Of a DNA stretch of 64,000 nucleotides, positions 46,149 to 64,000 are shown in pieces (the stretch's first letter is position 1; the number at the start of each line of letters is the position of its first letter). This DNA is from Squalus acanthias (taxonomy: Eukaryota). The stretch is from assembly GCA_030390025.1 (NCBI GenBank), contig CM059432.1:98272001-98336000 (forward strand), given 5' to 3'. Below the pieces are notes generated by a model, which searched no databases, had not been told where the DNA came from, and was given only the letters and a program-made list of their open reading frames with translations. The position numbers and the translations under genes are program-made.

Positions 46149-48797
46149 GCCGGGAAATTCGGCACCTTATCGCCGGCTGTTAAGGCCGGTTTCAGCAAAC
46201 AAATGGCGGCTGCCTCGCTTCCGGCCACTTCTGGAGCTTGCGCGGCGGCTGCCATTTTGGGCATGTCAGTAACGCGGCCGTTGCCCGCGTTCACCAGAAG
46301 AATGCTAATCAGTCAGATCGTGACGTCAATCAGCGTGCACGACCTGCTATTTTTGACATTGCCGCTCGACTGCACGCCTTCTCCAAATCATGCACAGTAG
46401 AACATGCTGCATGAGGGAGGCCTCACCAGGGATCATCAACAGCTTGCAGGTGACTTGCTTTTTGATTTCTACTGGCTCTGTGCAAGTTTGTGCAACTGCT
46501 TGGAGCTTTCTACAGTTATTTAAAGTTGGTGAGGTGACAGGGAGTGGTGCTGCAAGTGGAGAAGGACTTGCTTCTGATTTAAAGGGTTCTGATCAGACCA
46601 CTTGCTCCTAGTCATGGGGTCTGTACTTGCAGTCCCCCTCGCGCTGAAGCATGACAAGGGTGATGGCGCAGAGGCAATAAAGACAAGCTGCTCACAGAGG
46701 GAGGAGGAGGGGCAGGAGAGCTCTTAGCAGAAGGCCTTTCCCACCTAGGGTCTTCAGGGAGCACTTCCCTTACCTGCACTGAAGCTAGGAACAGCGTATT
46801 CGGAGGTTCCGTTTGACCAAGGAGTTGGTCACAGAACACTGCCTCTCCTGGAACCAGACCTGCACCTTCACAGCAGGGTGACGACGGCGCTGCCAGTGAC
46901 CCTCAAGGTCCCATGGCCGTCAATCTTTTCACCACCAGATCCTTCCAGTCTGACTAGGCAACATAGCTAACATCTCCCAGTTCGCTGTCTATCGCTGCAT
47001 CCGGGAGGTCACAGAGGCTCTGTACTCCAGGAGAAGGGACTTCATTGTCTTCTCTCTGAACAGAGAGAAGCAGGAGGAGCGCGCACGTGACTTTGCTAGG
47101 ATATCGGGCTTCCCCATGGTGCAGGGCGCCATCGACTATACACATGTGGCTTTGTGGGCGCTGCATATCAATCCTGAGATGTACCACAACTGCAAAGGCT
47201 ACCACTCACCTAATGTGCAGTTGCTGTGCAACCATGCCCAGTACATCAGGACAGCTAATGCCCAGTATCCTGGCAGCAGTCATGATGCCTTCATCCTGTG
47301 CCAGTCCAGTGTGCCAGCAATCTTCCAGCCACCATGTCGAACCGAAGGGTGGCTGCTCGGAGACAATGGCTATCCACTCTACACCTGGTTGATGACTCCC
47401 CTCCGCAACCACACCACTTGTGGCCAGCACTCATATAATGACAGCCATGCTGTCACGAAGAACGTCATCGAGTAGACCACTGGGGCGCTGAAGCAATGGT
47501 TCTGCTGCCTTGACGGCTCAGGAGGAGCCCTCCAGTACTCACCAGAGTGGGTGGCCCATTTTGTGGTGGTCTGCAGCATCCTCCACAACTTGACCATCAT
47601 GAAGACGTGGCCCTTGCCACCATGGGTTCTGCCACCATCTCAGGAGGAGGAGGAAGAGGAAAAGGAAGAGGAAGGGGTAGAAGAGGAGGAGTAGGAGGAA
47701 GAGGAAGGGAGGAGGCAGGCAGAAAATTCTCATTATGGGCTAGCTGTCCGTGAGCACATCATCAGACTCCTGTTCCAATGAACGAATCCCCAGATCCCCG
47801 TTGCTCAACAGTTTCCCACCTTACCGACCCTTTGTCACGGAACATCACAGCTTTGGGCACATCACAAAACAAACATTCTTAACATAATTTATAAATGATT
47901 ATTTTGAATATTACATTAAAAAGTCAACTACGCACCCTTGTGCATTTCCTTAGTGTCTGTCTTTCATGTATCTTTGCCTATTCCAGCGCCCCTTGCAGAG
48001 AGTCGGCACGGGCTTGACCGGCTGAATGGCCTCCTAATGTGCTGTAACGATTCTATGATTCTATACACAGTGCTCCCCCAGTGGCTGCAGCATGGCTGGT
48101 GGAAGGCTGCTTACTTTTGTGGGGGCACTGCAGATGGCCTTGCAGGATGACCTCGAGCAGCTCTGGGCCTAGAAGGCCCGGCTGTAGACTGCACCATGTC
48201 GGCATGGGCTGGCTGGTTGACAAACAATTGCAATGGCACTGGCGGAGTAGCTGTGGTGGTAGTACGAATGTTGTCATCCTGAGAGAGGCAGCAGATTTTT
48301 GCTTCACGGAGTCACTGCTGCTTCCCTGGGGCGGCACCTCAGCATTCCTAGCCATCTGTTGGAGGACAGATTGCTGGACTGCTGTGAGACCCTGCAAGCC
48401 CCTTTCCTAAACTCAGCCATGATGGCAGCAGTCTAATCTTGAATGGCAGCAAGCTGAGCCTGCATGAGAGCAGTCTGAGCTTCCTCTGCAGCACTCAGAC
48501 ATTGGGTCGCTTCCGTTTGTGCTGAAATGGAAGCTGTGACATCGCCCATCACACCCAACAGCATGTTTGAGTCCACAACTCCTCTAATGGAGTTATCCAT
48601 CACTTCCATCCTGGAAATCATGGGTTCCAAGCTCCACGCAAAGCCCCGTGCAATGTTGGAGCCGGACTCCTCCATGCTCCTTGAAAGTGATGCCATTTCA
48701 ATAAGCAGTTCTATGTGCGTGCCCATCACCCTTATTCTGAAGACCACCCCATCAAAGTCCTCATCTGAGCCCTCTGCAGTAGAACTCGCGCGCGAAT
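46149..48797 (+). mobile_element. PIF/Harbinger transposon, copy 3, right part lost
   Basis: Starts GGCCGGGAAATTC; transposase on +, ORF2 last exon on - (~47950-48790); small CR1 tail at ~47993-48065. Confidence 0.85.
46614..47781 (+). pseudogene. Harbinger transposase, disrupted
   Basis: RRPFPPRVFREH, VQGAIDYTH, KGYHSPNVQ, GSSHDAFIL, WLLGDNGYP, KNVIE and CSILHN motifs; poly-Glu tail. Confidence 0.9.
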
Positions 48798-53520: not shown

Positions 53521-53541
53521 CTCTCTCTGTATCTCTAGCTC

Positions 53542-54661
53542 TGTAGGGGGTGGTGGTGGTAGGGGTCAGCCTTTCCCCTGACTCAGTGAGCGGTTCGAAT
53601 CGCTCCCACGCCCCAGGTTCAGACCTTGGACTTAATTAGGGGTTGTGAATAAAGATGCAGTAGACAACAGGTTCCGATGAAAGAATTTTGGCTTTTATTC
53701 AAAGTAAAAGGTAACAAACTTAAAACACACTTCACACTTAAACAGGTTGGGAAACATACGGTACAGGCGAGGGAGAATGACAATATACAAAACCCTTATC
53801 CCTCCCAAGAATCCCACTATCTAGCTAGGTTTTTGGTTTCAGGAGATCAGGGATAATGCTCACCAATGAATCCTTGACAGGATTTTAGAGTCTTTTGATT
53901 AAAACATTTTGTAAAGCCCTTGTTGCTGCGAGGTGTCCGATGGTCACTGAGGCAGTCGCTCTGGTTTCTTCTTGTGTGATGGTCTGTTTGTTGGCCTCCC
54001 TCCTTCCTCCTCGTGGCTTGTGGTGTCTTTTGCTGGAGCAGGGCTGAGAGAGAGAGAGAGAGAGAGAGTTGTTCCAGCATTGTCAGCGAGTCTAAAAAGA
54101 GAGAGCGAGTCTTGGGTCAGGCTGCAATTATATAGTCCTTTTCGCGCCCAAAACCCCTTACTAAAACGGTTTCGTGCTGAAGTGATTGGTTTCAGTTGAG
54201 GCCTGTTCATTCCATTGTCTTGTTAAGTTTGGATGGGCCTTCAACTATGCTAAACCAAATCAAATCCTGGTCAATTGAAAGACCTCGTTACCAGTAACGG
54301 CTTTTTTACTGAGTCAAATGGCTTGCGTCCTGTCGATCTGTTGTTTTATTGGAGTTTGCAGTATCCTCATGTTTTGGGTTTCTTGCTGGGCCTAGCATTC
54401 CTATCTTTATGCGTCTCCTTTAATGGGTTGTGTGTTTTGGGTGGGGCGGCCTTCTCCCAGGGCCTATTGTCCAAATGTTAATGTTTGCTGGGGCTTGAAT
54501 TCCCAGACAATGCAATACCCAAAACTGCTATTTACAGAGGTTGATCCCACATGCTGTGCAGCCTCCTCTTCCTTACATGTCCAGACATGTTCTTTTAAAG
54601 TTCCAAAGTCCTTATTTTTTTCCTTAGATTTTGGGGATCTGCAAATTTTGGAAACTTTACA
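53542..54661 (-). repeat. 3' LTR (1120 bp)
   Basis: Direct repeat of 60288-61404; on the - strand TATATAA at 54128-54134 and AATAAA at 53694-53699. Confidence 0.97.
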
Positions 54662-54672
54662 GTCCCTCCTGC
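54662..54672 (-). other. Polypurine tract
   Basis: - strand GCAGGAGGGAC directly before TGTAAAG of the 3' LTR. Confidence 0.7.
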
Positions 54673-54951: not shown

Positions 54952-57293
54952 TCAAACAGGTGTATCTCTCTCCACCTCAGCATAATGCTTCTTCCAAGTC
55001 CTTTCATTTCGGAACTGTAGTATTCTGCCCTTTCCCTTGCACTGAGTGCACACCAGGTACAATACTATTCCCAGTTGGCAAACTACGAGGAGGTGGGAAG
55101 CCATTCTGACCCATGAAGGGACCTCTATGTTTTCGAAGATGTCCCACCAGGGTGATACCTTGAATCTCTCTCTATCTCGTGTGTTTTCTGTTCTAAAGTG
55201 TAGAAATGTTTTTGTGAGAGCTCTACAGCTTTTAGTAACTTGGTAAGGCGTTCTGGTAGCTGGGGAATTTCGTAGCCAAAATGTGCTACATATTTTTGCA
55301 GGTTGGTGAAATTTTGTGTTACAGTGAGGTGAACAGTGGAGGGTTCAGGAATGGGGACAATCCGTTCCTGGGCCACTTGAACTGCTGCCTCGGGTTTAAA
55401 GCAGAAACTGCTGTCACTTACCGGACACCAGGTATGCTGTCCATACTGGTAGTGAGGCGCGCTGGTGGTGACACAATATGTCCCACCTCCTATATATGCT
55501 ACCTGTGGAGGGACATGGTCTTGTGCCATTACCTCCATGGTACAGTTTATAGGTCGTGCGCCAGCAGCTTTAAACCCGCACTGTGGTTTAGAATAGGCGT
55601 TCAAGTGCTGGGGACACAGTATTATGTGTGCTCCCCGGCTCCAGCACCCGGAGAGGTCTGTACCTGTCATAGCGTGCTCCCACTTTATGACATAAGGTGG
55701 GACAGCTGTGAAACGGATGTGTGCACCCCCTTGAATGACTCCAATGTTCTCCACCCTGTATACCGGTGCGGGTCGGGCGGTCCCACCCATGACCGGCATC
55801 CTCACCACTATCTCCATGATAGTGTGATTGGAACACCCACAATCTACTGGTACAGGGTAGGCTTCAGAGGCTAGACGCAGCTGACATGGGCTTAGTGAAT
55901 TCTCAAATGGGTGGAGGGCTGCGAGGTGCTTGTTGCTGATCCAGGAGGGGACTAAACCTTGCTTTAAATCCTCCAGGTTACTCCGGCCCTCGCCTCGCAA
56001 CCATGCCCCGTACCGTATGCACACCTCGTTCTGTGCAGCCTGGTCTGATGCATTCCTGTCCTCCCGTATGAGTGCATTTACCGTCTTTGCATGCCTTTCC
56101 AGCTCAGCAATGATTTATTTTAAATGGACCGTCATAGCTTGGTCCTCGTGTAACTCTGAGCCCACTACTGTATTTTCATCCATTAAGATTTTGCGTAATT
56201 GTGTTTTTAAACCGTTTATTTGTGGCTGCAATTCTATGTCATCCAGACTGTTGATGACAGAGGACCCTGTATTATATGCTGTAAAAACATCATTCCAGGC
56301 TCCCCTCCTTTGTCTCCCCGTATTGCTAAAATACTCAGTGTGTGCAGTGTACAGTTCTGTTTTGTCTACGTTTGCGAAATCGAACTCGTAGAACTTCCTG
56401 AACATTTCTCTGAACAGGGCCTGGTATAGCTGTTCCGTCTCTTTGGGGCACCACTCAGGTAAGTGTACCTCCGTGAGGTTTAGGATCACGGAAGCTACCG
56501 CATAGTGTACCCCCTGGTATAGCACCTTTTCGGTTGGCACTAGTACCAGCCCATTCCCTGGTCCCTTGGTGGTGGCAGGGCACGTCTCTGTGTGTGTCCT
56601 TGCTGTCTGGGTCGTGGGCAGGGGCTTACGGGCGTGTGCCACGAGTTCAGTGGCCTTGACTGGGGCTGGAGAGGGCGGGACTATGCAAGTGTGTAGGTGG
56701 GAATCCCATTTCACCCACTTCCCCTTATCCAGCCATGCTGCGGAAAAGATAATGGATATGCCCGTGGGGCAGGCCTTCCGCGACCCCCACATGCAGACAT
56801 AAATCCCCTGTTCCGATTTCTACCACTTGTCCCAGCACACGCTCACACCCCTATGGTCCCCTGTAATGGTCCGATGGGTGTCGTTCCCCAGTCGCTCCCA
56901 GTCAGCTGTACGGTCCCCCATATCTCTGCTCAGCTTCCTGAGCCACCACCACCTCCCCAGGGGAATCTGTCCTCTGCAGGTCAGGCACACGCGTTTCCCC
57001 TCAGTGACCCCGACCCGAGTGGCTACAACCTGTATGCTGGGACAGGGGAGGGAGGCCTCCCCATAGGTGAGCCCAGTCTGACTGGAGTATCGGGTGGAGT
57101 TAGATCCCAGCCACCCTGGCCATCTTCCCACGTGGGAATAGGTAGCGAGCTCCTCCACGCCTCGCTTGCTGCCCCCCGCAGTCACAACCGGTGCTCTCTC
57201 TCCTGAGCACCCAAAAATGTGGGAGTCCTCCACGTCACCTCGCCTCCCAGCGCTCATTCCTATCAGAGCGAGTAGGAGTATGCCCCCCTTCAT
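54952..57293 (-). pseudogene. env: Envelope glycoprotein (~780 codons): signal peptide, Ig-like domain, furin site, class I fusion-like ectodomain, TM; two in-frame stops and one frameshift
   Basis: ORFs 56820-57440, 56115-56792 and 55125-56024 share one frame (stops at 56820 and 56115). Signal MKGGILLLALIGMSAG; RQRR|GAWNDVF at 56315-56304; a shifted frame gives PWWDIF...MASHLLVVCQLGIVLYLVC...DTPV* ending at 54952. Confidence 0.85.
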
Positions 57294-57307
57294 ATCGACA
57301 ATCCCTT

Positions 57308-57328
57308 CTGTAAGGAGACACAAGAGCA
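57308..57328 (-). promoter_or_regulatory. Putative env splice acceptor
   Basis: - strand TGCTCTTGTGTCTCCTTACAG|AAGGGATTGTCGATATG, 14 nt before the signal-peptide ATG. Confidence 0.65.
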
Positions 57329-57613
57329 TATAGCCAGGTCCCGAGTAGATTCTCTGGCTTGGGTGAAGCATAGTCGGGTCTTGCAACCTCGACTCAATGC
57401 AAAACACTCTTGAAACTATAACATTTAAACTACCAACCACCTTACTTAAAATTTAACTAAAAACACCCAAACTTAACAATCTCAAAATTTCACAATAAAA
57501 GCTATGTACATTTGCCACCCGTCTCCGAGCAGCCAGCCTAAACCCTGTCGGGCTGCAGCACACTACTCGCTTTGGTGTGGCCGCCCTGTCCTGTACCTGT
57601 TGTCCCTTGCAGC

Positions 57614-58461: not shown

Positions 58462-60285
58462 TCAGAAGTCTGGGTTGTATGGGGCTGATGGGGTCAGAGC
58501 ACCGATGGTTGCTGCTACCTTCCCTGGGCCAGTCAATAGGGACCTCATGGCGTCCAACAATGACTCGACCGTGGCGGGAGGGATCCCTGTCTCTGCCTTT
58601 TGGGCTGGGGCTGAGGAATTCTTTCCCTTGTTATCCTTCCAAGGATTCTTACACTCCTTCCTCCAGTGACCATCCTTCCCACACCCATAACAGTTAAGCT
58701 TTGTGCTGGAAGGGTTATTCCCTTCCTGATGCCACTCCTTCCTACTCTGGCCGGGTTTTATTTCATGTACTTTCCCTTTTTGTGGGGGCTCTTCCGCTCC
58801 TCTACCGTTCCGGTAGGCCAGGTTCAGCTGTCTGACCACTGCCTCCTCGGTGACCCGGGGGTCTTTCGGGTCAAACCAAAGCTCAGCCTGGGTTTTGATC
58901 CGTGGCAAGCTGTTTGCCACTAGGCTATGGAGCCAGTGGGCCAGCTCATCCCGGTTTAGGTGAGCCCTGTTAAGATCCCCACTGCAAGCACCCCTGTACA
59001 CGGGCCACAGCCTGTCTGCGAACGCCTGTGGGGTCTCTCCTGCAAGCTGCACTGTTTTCTCCACCCGGGAGAAAGGACTTCCCTCATTCATCCCCATGGC
59101 CTCTAAAACTTCCTCTCTGATGGCAGCATATCCATTCTGTCCTCTCTTGCTCTCAGCAGAGAGGGACTGGTATAGCCGGCTGTCCAGTGAGAACAGGAGC
59201 ATTTTTGCCATCTTGGCATCATCACAGTCGTTGATGCCTGCTGCCTGTTCTACTTCTATGAAGTGAACTGAGGGGTCCCCTTGTTGGGTGAGTTTACTCA
59301 GGTGGCTTACCATAACCCTAAGCTGTTGTGTACCGTGGGGAGCCATGAACTGGCATTGGAGGGGTCCCCCATCCCCGTTATCAGCAGGTGGGCCAAACCT
59401 TTCCTGCCGGGCCGGGCACATCGGCCCCGGTCCCAGCCTCTCTTGCGGGGGTTTTTCCACCTCAGCTTCTGCCCCTAACTCCACCCCTTCTTCTTGCCAG
59501 ACTTCGCTAAAGCTTGGCGCTATGGGTGGTGGTCGTGGGCCCTCCTGCTCCTCAACCGGGTCGTCCCTTGGCGCTATCTTTGGTATCTGAACCGTTCTCC
59601 CCAGGTTCCCTGTAAAGTCGACCTGGGCTGCACTTGGGCTTATGAGGCACGCCACACCTCTTGCCTTCCTCAGAGCAAGGCTGAGACTCTCTATCTGCTT
59701 CTGACAGGGGCCATGGTCTGCATCCTCAAACCCCTGTGCTCTCATTACCTTATAGGCTGCCTGTAAGCCTTTTACTGTCTCCTCCTGCTCTCTTACTTGT
59801 TTTGCCAGGCGGGCATTCTTTTCCCGCAACCTCAGCTCATTGTTCTTGGCCTCTGTGACCTGGCACTGTAAATAATCCTGCCAGGTCTTATGTTCCCCCA
59901 CTAACTGCACCCTTTCCTGGTTTAGCGCCTGCAATGCTAACAGTAACTTCTCCCCTGCTAGGGCCTTTGTTTGGACTTCCAGGGCTGACTCCCGAATCTC
60001 AGCTGCCTGTGCTTCAACGAGTCTGTCCAAAAGTTGGATCTGTTTCTTGAAGCACATCAGCCAGACTGCCTTTTCTAAGGATTTTTTATGATCCTTCCCT
60101 TCTGTCCATTTAGCTGCTGCATCTACCGGGCGCCCAGTTTTTAACAGATTAGTGACCCACTTCTTTTCCATATTCACTTTGCTGAATACATAATCTGAAA
60201 TCCTCTCTTCCATTACAGTTCTCTCTTCCGAATCAGTGTCTACTGCTTCACAACCCTTTTGCCAAGTCCGTACCACAGTCGCCAT
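58462..60285 (-). CDS. gag: Gag polyprotein, 607 aa, uninterrupted
   Basis: N-terminal coiled coil, Pro/Glu linker, MHR-like QLAGETPQAFADRL, CCHC knuckle CYGCGKDGHWRKEC, C-terminal PSAP; first ORF after the 5' LTR. Confidence 0.93.
   Translation of the reverse strand: MATVVRTWQKGCEAVDTDSEERTVMEERISDYVFSKVNMEKKWVTNLLKTGRPVDAAAKWTEGKDHKKSLEKAVWLMCFKKQIQLLDRLVEAQAAEIRESALEVQTKALAGEKLLLALQALNQERVQLVGEHKTWQDYLQCQVTEAKNNELRLREKNARLAKQVREQEETVKGLQAAYKVMRAQGFEDADHGPCQKQIESLSLALRKARGVACLISPSAAQVDFTGNLGRTVQIPKIAPRDDPVEEQEGPRPPPIAPSFSEVWQEEGVELGAEAEVEKPPQERLGPGPMCPARQERFGPPADNGDGGPLQCQFMAPHGTQQLRVMVSHLSKLTQQGDPSVHFIEVEQAAGINDCDDAKMAKMLLFSLDSRLYQSLSAESKRGQNGYAAIREEVLEAMGMNEGSPFSRVEKTVQLAGETPQAFADRLWPVYRGACSGDLNRAHLNRDELAHWLHSLVANSLPRIKTQAELWFDPKDPRVTEEAVVRQLNLAYRNGRGAEEPPQKGKVHEIKPGQSRKEWHQEGNNPSSTKLNCYGCGKDGHWRKECKNPWKDNKGKNSSAPAQKAETGIPPATVESLLDAMRSLLTGPGKVAATIGALTPSAPYNPDF
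60267..60284 (-). other. Primer binding site, tRNA-Ser-like (imperfect)
   Basis: TGGCGACTGTGGTACGGA starts 3 nt after the LTR; TGGCG is complementary to the CGCCA end of tRNA-Ser; isoacceptor not resolved. Confidence 0.55.
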
Positions 60286-60287
60286 TA

Positions 60288-61404
60288 TGTAGGGGTGGTG
60301 GTGGTAGGGGTCAGCCTTTCCCCTGACTCAGTGAGCGGTTCGAATCGCTCCCACTCCCCAGGTTCAGACCTTGGACTTATTTAGGGGTTGTGAATAAAGA
60401 TGCAGTAGACAACAGGTTCCGATGAAAGAATTTTGGCTTTTATTCAAAGTAAAAGGTAACAAACTTAAAACACACTTCACACTTAAACAGGTTGGGGAAC
60501 ACACGGTACAGCGAGGGAGAAGGACAATATACAAAACCCTTATCCCTCCCAAGAATCCCACTTTCTAGCTAGGTTTTTGGTTTCAGGAGATCAGGGATAA
60601 TGCTCACCAATGAATCCTTGACAGGATTTTGAGTCTTTTGATTAAAACATTTCGTAAGGCCCTTGTTGCTGCGAGGTGTCTGATGGTCACTGAGGCAGTC
60701 GCTCTGGTTTCTTCTTGTGTGATGGTCTGTTTGTTGGCCTCCTCCTTCCTCCTCGTGGCTTGTGGTGTCTTTTGCTGGAGCAGGGCTGAGAGAGAGAGAG
60801 AGAGAGAGAGAGAGCTGTTCCAGCGTTGTCAGCGAGTCCAAAAAGAGAGCGAGTCTTGGGTCAGGCTGCAATTATATAGTCCTTTCCGCGCCCAAAACTC
60901 CTTACTAAAGCGGTTTCGTGCTGAAGTGATTGGTTTCAGTTGAAACCTGTACATTCCATTGTCTTGTTAAGTTTGGATGGGGCTTCAACTATGCTAAACC
61001 AAATCAAATCCTGGTCAATTGAAAGACCTCGTTACCAGTAACGGCTTTTTTACTGAGTCAAATGGCTTGCATCCTGTCGATCTGTTGTTTTATTGGAGTT
61101 TGCATTGTCCTCATGTTTTGGGTATCTTGCTGGGCCTAGCATTCCTATCTTTATGCGTCTCTTTTAATGGGTTCTGTGTTTTGGGTGGGGCGGCCTTCTC
61201 CCAGGGCCTATTGTCCAAATGTTAATGTTTGTTGGGGCTTGAATTCCCAGACAATGCAATACCCAAAACTGCTATTTACAGAGGTTGACCCACATGCTGT
61301 GCAGCCTCCTCTTCCTTACATGTCCAGACATGTTCTTTTAAAGTTCCAAAGTCCTTATTTTTTTCCTTAGATTTTGGGGATCTGCAAATTTTGGAAACTT
61401 TACA
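60288..61404 (-). repeat. 5' LTR (1117 bp)
   Basis: - strand TGTAAAGTTTCC...ACCCCTACA; TATATAA at 60872-60878; (CT)n run; AATAAA at 60439-60444. Confidence 0.97.
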
Positions 61405-61854
61405 GCTCTCTCTCTATATATATAATATATATATTAAACTGGGTAGATTATCTCAGATGGGTTTAATGATCTCATATACATATCTTATGATCTTATGACC
61501 TTCTGCCTAAACTAACTAAACCAAATCAATCATGTAAAGGAAAGCAGGTTAGCTTATATGGGATCCTCATAAACTAAAACACATGCCTTTAATTCACCAC
61601 AGTGCATGATTCAATTTTTCAAGGTTGAACAATTAATTAACCTCTGCTCAGGAGCTGATGTGGGAAGCCCATTATGTTCACATGGCCAGAGCACAAAGCA
61701 AGCAAACTATAACTACTTAGTCAAATTTATTTACAGATGAAATAATATACAGAAACAAAAAGACAGTTTTTCTAAAAAGAATTAAAAAATGTACTGTTTA
61801 TGAACTAATTGAAAAACAGAAAAGTACGCAAACATTTTTAAAGTTCTTCTCAAC

Positions 61855-62033: not shown

Positions 62034-64000
62034 CATAGAAACATAGAAACATAGAAGATAGGAGCAGGAGTAGGCCATTCGGCCCCTCGAGCCTGTTCTG
62101 CCATTTAATGAGATCATGACTGATCATCCAAATTCAGTATCCCGTCCCTGCTTTCTCTCCATATCCCTTGATCCCTTTAGCCTTAAGAAATATATCTAAC
62201 TCCTTCTTGAATATATTTAATGAATTGGCCTCAACTGCCTTCTGTGGTAGAGAATTCCAGAGGTTCACCACTCTCTGGGTGAAGAAATTCCTCCTCATCT
62301 CAGTCCTAAATGGCTTACCCCTTATCCTTAGACTGTGACCCCTGGTTCTGGACTCCCCCGCCATCAGGAACAACCTTCCTGCATCTAGTCTGTCTAGTCC
62401 TGTTAGAATATGATAATTTTCAATGAGATCCCCTCTCATTCTTCTAAACTCTAGCAAATACAAGCCCAATCGACCCAATCTCTCTTCATACGTCATTTCT
62501 GCCATCCCAGGTATCAGTCTGGTGAATCTTCGCTGCACTCCCTCCATGGCAAGAACATCCTTCCTCAGATAAGGCGACCAAAACTGCACACAATACTCAA
62601 GGTGTGGTCTCACCAAGGCCCTGTACAACTGCAGCAAGACATCCTTGCTCCTGTACTCAAATCCTCTCACTATGAAGGCCAACATACCATTTGCCTTCTT
62701 AACCACCTGCTGCACCTGCATGCTTACCTTCAGCGACTGGTGCACAAGGACACCCAGGTCTCATTGCACTTCCCCTTCTCCCAATCTATTGCTGTTCAGA
62801 TAATAATCTGCCTTTCTGTTTTTGCCACCAAAGTGGATAACCTCGCATTTATTCACATTATATTGCATCTGCCATGCATCTGCCCAATCACCCAGCCTGT
62901 CCAAATCATAATGGAGTTTCTCTGCATCCTCCTCACAGCACACACGCCCACCCAGCTTTGTGTCGTCTGCAAACTTGGAGATATTACATCTAGTTCCCTC
63001 GTCTAGATCATTAATATATATTGTGAATATCTGGGGTCCTAGCACCGATCCCTGCGGTACCCCACTAGTTACTGCCTGCCACTCGGAAAAAGACCCATTT
63101 ATTCCAACTCTTTGCTTCCTGTCTGCCAACCAGTTCTCTATCCAAGTCAGTACCTTACCCCCAATCCCATGTGCTTTAACTTTGCACGCTAATCTCTTAT
63201 GCGGGACCTTATCGAAAGCCTTCTGAAAGTCAAATATACCACATCCACTGGTTCTCCCTTATCTATTCTACCAATTACATCCTCAAAAAATTCCAGTAGA
63301 TTAGTCAAGCATGATTTACCTTTTGTAAATCCATGTTGACTTTGTCCGATCCTGTCACTGTTTTCCACGTGCTCTGCTATTACATCTTTTATAATGGACT
63401 CTAGCATTTTCCCCACTACCGATGTCAGGCTTACCGGTCTATAATTCCCAGTTTTCTCTCTACCACCATTTTTTAAATAGTGGGGTTACATTAGCTACCC
63501 TCCAATCCATGGGAACTGTGCCAGAGTCTAAAGAATTTTGGAAGATGACCAGCAATGCATCTACTATTTCTAGGGCCACTTCCTTATGTACACTAGGATG
63601 TAGATTATCAGGCTCTGGGGATTTATCGGCCTTCAATCCCTTCAATTTCCCTAACACCATTTCCCTACAAATACTGATTTCATTCAGTTCCTCCCTCTCA
63701 TTAGACCCTATGTTCCCTGACATTTCTGGGAGGTTATTTGTGTCCTCCTTTGTGAAGACAGAACCAAAGTATGTATTTAATTGGTCTGCCATTTCTTTGT
63801 TCCCCATTATAAATTCCCCTGATTCTGACTGCAAGGGACCTATGCTTGACTTCACCAATCTTTTTCTCTTCACATATCTATAGAAGCTTTTACAATCAGT
63901 TTTTATGTTCCCTGCAAGCTTACTGTCATACTCTATTTTCCCCCTCTTAATTAATCCCTTTGTCCTCCTTTGCTGAATCCGAAACTGCTCCCAATCAGGT
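62034..64000 (-). mobile_element. Young CR1 LINE (runs off the window)
   Basis: RT ORF pieces 62134-63873; CATAGAAA tail; near-identical to 16981-19429 without the MITE. Confidence 0.95.

Follow-up and report, generated by a model that had tools for sequence, protein, structure and literature searches.

The window analyzed here, a 64,000-nt stretch of the Squalus acanthias genome, carries on its minus strand an element that fits a lokiretrovirus-like endogenous retrovirus. LTR comparison placed the 5' LTR, with TG...CA termini on the minus strand, at 60288..61404 and the 3' LTR at 53542..54661; the two are 97.6% identical (1093/1120 aligned bases) and are bordered by a 4-bp target duplication, GCTC (53538-53541 and 61405-61408). 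Also on the minus strand are a polypurine tract just inside the 3' LTR (54662-54670), a PBS for tRNA-Arg(UCG) that here measures 19 nt with one extra base (60266..60284), a gag gene of 607 aa with a CCHC knuckle (58462..60285), and an Ig-like frame followed by an env-like frame (55125..57452). The gag ATG (60283-60285) lies within the PBS, and therefore the first codons are dictated by the acceptor stem of the primer tRNA; in families B, C, and F of those described below, a leader separates PBS and gag. The env-like frame encodes a furin-like RQRR, is interrupted by an in-frame stop, and gave no PF00523, other Pfam, PDB, or atlas match. The extra frame ahead of it (56820-57452) showed a weak immunoglobulin-domain match, and a similarly weak Ig-like frame precedes the env-like gene in relatives, all below the Pfam cut-off. 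An AATAAA (60439-60444) and a TATA-like site (60872-60878), both on the minus strand, would place U5 at ~60288-60420, and it is from their positions that we assign the motif described below to U5. The R region deduced in this way is long (~425 nt, 60420-60845) and contains a dinucleotide microsatellite (60789-60814).

No RT, integrase, or other pol match was found in the window copy. Relatives L129 and L132 encode protease, RT, tether, RNase H, and integrase, in the order gag-pol-env between LTRs, and in PDB the best matches were RT/RNase H p80 and Pr125Pol chains of retroviruses, with Ty3 ranking behind them. The nearest named Pol relatives are those of frogs, coelacanth, and a turtle (34-50%). 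In L132 (1894-6264), gag and pol share a frame with one stop codon between them, which suggests that Pol might be made by read-through, as in type C retroviruses. Elsewhere in the window, a frame at 46954-47475 (+) resembles what we take to be a piece of a Harbinger-type nuclease, and frames at 62134-63258 (-) resemble what are presumably pieces of a CR1-type LINE reverse transcriptase. Identity with Troyka was considered and rejected, since the CG termini and 3-bp TSD given in the available part of its description do not fit (PMC12440569).

A tRNA-like motif at the LTR end

A preliminary description of this DNA had drawn a tRNA-like cloverleaf on the plus strand, antisense to U5, and its named stems, T arm, and CCA can all be read directly in the sequence. 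The unit begins 4 nt inside the LTR end (TGTA, 60288) with an acceptor-like stem, GGGGTGG (60292-60298) pairing with CCACTCC (60351-60357), which on the element's minus strand is a terminal U5 stem (60292..60357). It encloses a central arm (60308..60329; core GTCAG/CTGAC on the plus strand) and a T arm consisting of a 5-bp hairpin with an 8-nt loop (60333..60350). Within the T arm, 60337-60346 reads as a B box on the plus strand, GGTTCGAATC, and as GAUUCGAACC on the element RNA. The CCA (60358-60360) overlaps a second, outer segment (60359..60365), CAGGTTC on the plus strand and GAACCUG on the RNA, which is followed at 60366..60378 by the U5 strand of a predicted U5-leader stem; the leader strand comprises the last 4 nt of the PBS plus 60262-60265. 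As the preliminary description had noted, the motif recurs in the other LTR (53546-53615), where the fourth acceptor pair is G.G. An AATAAA on the plus strand lies just past the motif (60393-60398), in the antisense direction, and is absent from other subtypes. Two further candidates were rejected: the tRNA-like unit as a self-primer, since it is internal to both LTRs and is succeeded by an ordinary PBS, and a second B box/T arm at 60359-60374, the stem of which is not kept across subtypes, its resemblance arising from the outer GAAC and the U5-leader strand.

The drawn cloverleaf is not the favored fold of the window copy, its energy being -26.0 vs. a minimum of -31.0 kcal/mol and its ensemble probability 2.6e-5. 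Of its parts, the T arm alone is firmly predicted (pair probabilities 0.93-1.0); the acceptor pairs have a probability of 0.01 and the central arm 0.14. The expectation that the 69-mer would fold better than shuffled controls held, if mildly, with z-scores of -1.61 on the plus strand (13/200 shuffles as good) and -1.57 on the minus strand (14/200), i.e., equal on the two strands. ARAGORN found no tRNA anywhere in the window, and an Rfam search of it returned a chance-level match only (E 4.7), with no match to the mascRNA-menRNA model. A canonical T arm has a 5-bp stem and a 7-nt loop; here, the loop measures 8 nt in the window's family (A) and in families J and D, and the J stem contains an A.C mismatch on the plus strand. 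Among the families compared, a D-loop GG on the folded strand is not kept and the linker is not conserved. Whichever strand is folded, the three-armed fold comes out as the minimum-energy structure in predictions for other subtypes and for families J and K. Considering also the compensatory changes seen elsewhere, the three-armed fold predicted beneath the drawn cloverleaf is real.

To describe variation within family A, we counted regular-expression matches at 105 distinct LTR ends, a sample biased towards the window's subtype. A clean acceptor stem (with G-U) followed by CCA does not hold as a general design, since it occurred at only 2 of these ends. The variable fourth acceptor pair was G.G at 31, G-U at 18, U-G at 10, A.G at 4, G.A at 3, and T-A at 2, with 37 unparsed. 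Nor is a CCA after the stem a conserved feature: CCA was found at 48 ends, other triplets at 49, and 8 were unparsed. The central arm was missing from 28 of the 105 ends and the loop from 13, and an exact-pattern search identified a subtype devoid of both arms at 76 LTR ends on many contigs. The deletion is present in both LTRs of such elements, and they have therefore been copied without the cloverleaf. The T-arm loop is thus a dispensable extra: lineages replicate without it and keep the outer motif.

Covariation among families and the strand that folds

Ten further families (B-K), with Gag proteins 25-57% identical to that of the window, were found in the same genome by means of divergent Gag proteins and patterns, so that all families compared come from one genome. 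A terminal stem closing at the LTR end, with differing sequences, was predicted in 8/9 families, the exception being I. Families J and K share the three-way junction, built of different arms, whereas D has two arms; the central arm is replaced in J, lengthened in K, and absent from D. The loop GTTCGAAT, or a CpG-decayed form of it, was present at every counted end of A (100), J (22), and D (25), as it must be from the construction of the count. The T stem is GAGCG/CGCTC in A (83-96 of 100 ends per pair), GGACG/CGCCC in J, and GGTG/CACC in D (24-25 of 25 ends); its second pair is C-G in A and J and T-A in D, and its fourth is A-T in A and G-C in J and D. These are script counts on natural copies. 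In K, one base is inserted in the loop and the stem is 3 bp, and the T-arm hairpin is absent from E, F, G, H, I, B, and C. A capsid tree groups J with A and K and nests D with E, the joining node being weakly placed; the hairpin has therefore either undergone repeated loss or been transferred by recombination. Scans of viral and metagenome sequences for relatives gave nothing, or apparent chance matches. Covariation across families, the absence of which would have counted against the fold, was thus found, with the loop fixed and the stems compensated. Since the families concerned are 43-50% identical in Gag, this combination indicates that the motif is under selection.

The suggestion that G-U pairs, which become A.C mismatches on the sense strand, favor folding on the antisense strand fails across families, as energies and z-scores are split and J has A.C on the antisense strand. 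Raw folding energy favored the antisense (plus) strand in 11 of 16 representative copies, in two of them by ≤0.2 kcal/mol, and the sense strand in 5, while shuffle z-scores favored the sense (minus) strand in 8 of the 16. In the window copy, raw energy favors the plus strand by ~3-4 kcal/mol. Such a preference is expected, the plus strand being the G-rich one. In the J T stem, a pair that is A.C on the plus strand is G-U on the element RNA in 18/22 copies and A-T in three more. T-stem departures in A, read on the plus strand, were of the A.C type in 29 cases and the G-U type in 16, a weak comparison as they are not independent. The variable acceptor pair of A, on the other hand, is tolerated better on the plus strand (G-U or U-G in 28/68 parsed ends). 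The U5-leader stem predicted for J and D has energies of -12.8 and -16.1 kcal/mol on the sense strand and -8.6 and -10.9 on the opposite strand, the difference reflecting sense-only G-U pairs, and in J, D, and K the sense strand of the junction linker is rich in A. It is therefore likely that the predicted fold works on the element's sense (minus-strand) RNA.

A fold read on the plus strand could instead be an antisense tRNA mimic like mascRNA and menRNA of MALAT1 and NEAT1, in which case RNase P and RNase Z would cut antisense transcripts of the LTR and end them, and the cutting may release a small RNA. On that strand the motif, like mascRNA/menRNA, is ~65 nt long, has no D stem, and combines a conserved T hairpin with a variable middle arm (PMC12941219). 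In the same account the T hairpin of mascRNA/menRNA is the most conserved part, the middle hairpin is variable, and CCA is added later, so that the loss of CCA is no argument against a mimic (PMC12941219). The lower plus-strand energy of the window copy, and a T hairpin that stacks gaplessly on the terminal stem to give 12-13 pairs in A, J, and D, also agree with a mimic. Unlike mascRNA/menRNA, however, the motif is antisense to its element, has an 8-nt rather than a 7-nt loop in A, J, and D and no Rfam match, and shows the J mismatch in 18/22 copies; no triple-helix tract was found upstream of the plus-strand motif, where there is PBS/gag or host flank. The linker, moreover, is U-rich on the plus strand in J, D, and K with no kept GG, and both arms are lost at the 76 ends noted above. 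We consider such a mimic unlikely, and equally improbable that one sequence has two roles, a primer dock on one strand and a mascRNA-like antisense terminator on the other.

A different use of the plus strand would be at the DNA level, with TFIIIC binding GGTTCGAATC and either directing a short antisense Pol III RNA or marking a boundary at the LTR end. Families A, J, and D all retain the 10-mer, which matches a B box, and four A subtypes have an A-box-like site with one mismatch 27-29 nt upstream and a T run ~95-100 nt downstream, although one-mismatch A-box matches are common by chance (~20% by estimate) and J, D, and the subtypes without the central arm lack a suitably spaced A box. A B box would need no covarying stem, is broken by the K insertion, and here points away from the element. 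Promoters for Pol III derived from tRNAs do occur in LTRs: Helenus, Cassandra, and Ajax (TRIMp3) likewise carry a tRNA-like sequence with a B box inside the LTR, are short and non-coding, being made up of two LTRs, a PBS, and a PPT, and have boxes A and B that are thought to make the template RNA (PMC10886601). They differ from the present elements, which belong to a gag-pol-env family and in which the B box is antisense and the A box is not conserved. We regard this reading as quite unlikely, and the evidence weakens both the Pol III and the RNase P/Z reading.

Complementarity to the primer tRNA

The PBS pairs with the 3' 18 nt of a host tRNA, the genome's own tRNA-Arg(UCG), and among the other families the PBS of K matches tRNA-Arg(ACG) genes and that of B matches Arg-CCG genes. 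Pattern searches gave 430 matches to tRNA-Arg(UCG) genes genome-wide, and intron-bearing tRNA-Arg(UCG) genes occur in long tandem arrays with a 1.6-kb unit, together with Ser and Pro genes (G000:C26:38.9-41.9 Mb). Family K (L243-L272) has two PBS forms, which match two tRNA-Arg(ACG) isodecoders both present in the genome. Of the options offered in the preliminary description, a sense motif pairing with the T arm of the primer appears to fit best, as judged from the loop complement and the covariation of U5 and leader on the sense strand. The sense loop GAUUCGAACC is complementary in 10/10 positions, one of them G-U, to positions 52-61 of the primer tRNA-Arg, and would form a loop:primer duplex of -13.9 kcal/mol vs. 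-6.3 for the complete hairpin and -5.1 when the loop pairs with itself. In A, J, and D, the 10-nt complement requires an additional G, the one that makes the T arm non-canonical. In four families the hairpin loop is complementary to the primer T arm. The outer GAACCUG could form seven pairs with primer positions 50-56, and its core, GAAC, lies at the same place, just outside the terminal stem, in 9/9 families tested. As a T-arm complement would match almost any tRNA, these matches are no proof of primer specificity.

Pairing with the D or anticodon arm of the primer was rejected, since the cognate tRNA ranked only 3rd to 8th of 8 in 12/12 copies. The matches of this kind apparent by eye were TCTGACTTC in one subtype and an A-box-like arm in J; a 9-nt match to the anticodon arm in one A subtype was equaled in 1/300 shuffles, but was one of 12 tests.

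Nine families share, 5' of GAAC, a U5 strand that is predicted to pair with the leader and the final four bases of the PBS. When the U5 strands of nine families were tested against all nine leaders, the true pairing summed to -113.2 kcal/mol vs. a mean of -67.3, with 2/362,880 assignments as good and the family's own leader best in 6/9 rows, in a 14-nt window that was placed after inspection of the data. An unplaced 140-nt version was much weaker, the own leader coming first in 3/11 rows. The test performed poorly in families F and I, and it excluded B and C because the motif could not be placed in them. In family K, the change of primer is accompanied by a change of the U5 strand, and the whole sense fragment of the window is predicted to fold with the U5-leader stem.

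The exposed loop might instead serve genome dimerization, the sense-loop palindrome UUCGAA pairing with a second RNA in a kissing loop like the HIV DIS. In favor of such a contact, the six-base palindrome has a single base on either side and sits in an exposed loop that does not vary among A, J, and D, and the contact would explain why the loop has AUUCG instead of ACUCG, the exact complement of the primer. Yet the self-duplex is weak (-5.1 kcal/mol), the palindrome covers only 6 of the 10 conserved bases, it is broken in K, and it sits upstream of the PBS; dimerization is accordingly a distinctly improbable role. The motif could also be a functionless relic, a T-arm copy captured when the primer tRNA was over-read and now framing the LTR end. 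Elements of family E (L174, L175, L177-L179, L182) contain an inner degenerate PBS and a copy of the LTR end ~58 nt upstream of the working PBS, which shows that these U5 regions do capture primer-derived sequence; the arms are dispensable, and the 9-nt anticodon-arm match would be a natural remnant. We nonetheless find a relic highly doubtful, given the selection implied by the fixed loop and compensated stem. Lastly, the fold could act on minus strong-stop DNA, e.g., as a pause or an aid to strand transfer right after the primer. This is the first DNA made, and the T hairpin does form with DNA parameters. Folding with these parameters is weak, however, and equal on the two strands (-13.5 and -14.0 kcal/mol), and action on DNA, which would leave the fixed loop and the sense-only G-U pairs unexplained, is very improbable.

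We favor the reading that the cloverleaf is an endogenous retrovirus U5 end read on the complementary strand, and that on the sense RNA the fold is part of a docking domain for the tRNA-Arg primer, and assign it a probability of roughly 0.6. The motif is real and conserved, and is most likely a variant of a known retroviral mechanism rather than a tRNA mimic in its own right, namely a U5/PBS initiation domain of the retroviral kind that carries an additional, dispensable complement of the T arm, whose pairing we infer from complementarity. In the mechanism we propose, the U5-leader stem would mask the final four bases of the PBS, the partners of tRNA positions 59-62. The tRNA would anneal by its acceptor end, its T stem would then open, and the hairpin loop, or less strongly the outer GAAC, would capture positions 52-61, the loop being an accessory copy beside the outer motif. 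By analogy with the HIV PAS and the avian U5-TpsiC contact, capture may activate or stabilize initiation. If this is correct, the 10-nt T-arm complement in the loop could take over tRNA bases withheld by the U5-leader stem.

Comparison with known retroviral systems

Searches of openly available papers listed no description of the motif. The published lokiretrovirus plan consists of gag, pol with tether and RNase H, an env-like gene, and LTRs (PMC7947760), and relatives L129 and L132 share it. A lokiretrovirus Env has an RXKR site and resembles paramyxovirus F (PF00523); the env-like frame of the window copy has the RQRR noted above, and the present elements gave no PF00523 match for Env. The likeness is one of overall plan. 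PBS and tRNA are not mentioned in the main text of the lokiretrovirus paper, and the portion of its supplement available has no match for the 10-mer or "PBS", which says little (PMC7947760).

The closest parallels to the proposed docking domain are found in the initiation regions of other retroviruses. In avian sarcoma/leukosis virus, a U5-IR stem and a U5-leader stem accompany a U5-TpsiC contact with the primer, tRNA-Trp. The present elements would resemble that virus in a stem at the U5 end, a predicted U5-leader stem across the PBS, and an adjoining T-loop complement. They differ in using a tRNA-Arg primer and in having two T-arm complements, the longer of which, enclosed by the terminal stem, occupies an apical loop of the three-way junction and is lost in some lineages. 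If the proposed reading is true, the U5-IR/U5-leader/T-arm design is shared by avian and human retroviruses and a deep lineage resembling lokiretroviruses, which would refine a known mechanism rather than define a new class of RNA.

The U5-TpsiC contact has been proposed for avian sarcoma virus and HIV-2 (PMC3185550). The PAS of HIV is described as an 8-nt U5 sequence that is complementary to the T arm of the primer, activates priming, and is kept within a stem (PMC1865047). Like the PAS of HIV-1 and HIV-2, the motif described here is a U5 segment lying upstream of the PBS that is complementary to the T arm and contained in secondary structure (PMC1865047, PMC3185550). However, whereas the PAS is directed to the 5' strand of the T stem and is masked in its stem, the complement described here measures 10 nt, faces the T loop (tRNA positions 52-61), and is mostly exposed; again compared with the HIV-1/HIV-2 PAS, no anticodon-loop contact was found in the 12 copies of these elements. 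SHAPE did not see the PAS contact, and it may therefore be transient (PMC3185528). If the proposed reading holds, the shark elements form a natural series, in which the loop is intact, interrupted by an insertion, or deleted and three tRNA-Arg primers are used, and would make this disputed PAS-type contact testable by comparison.
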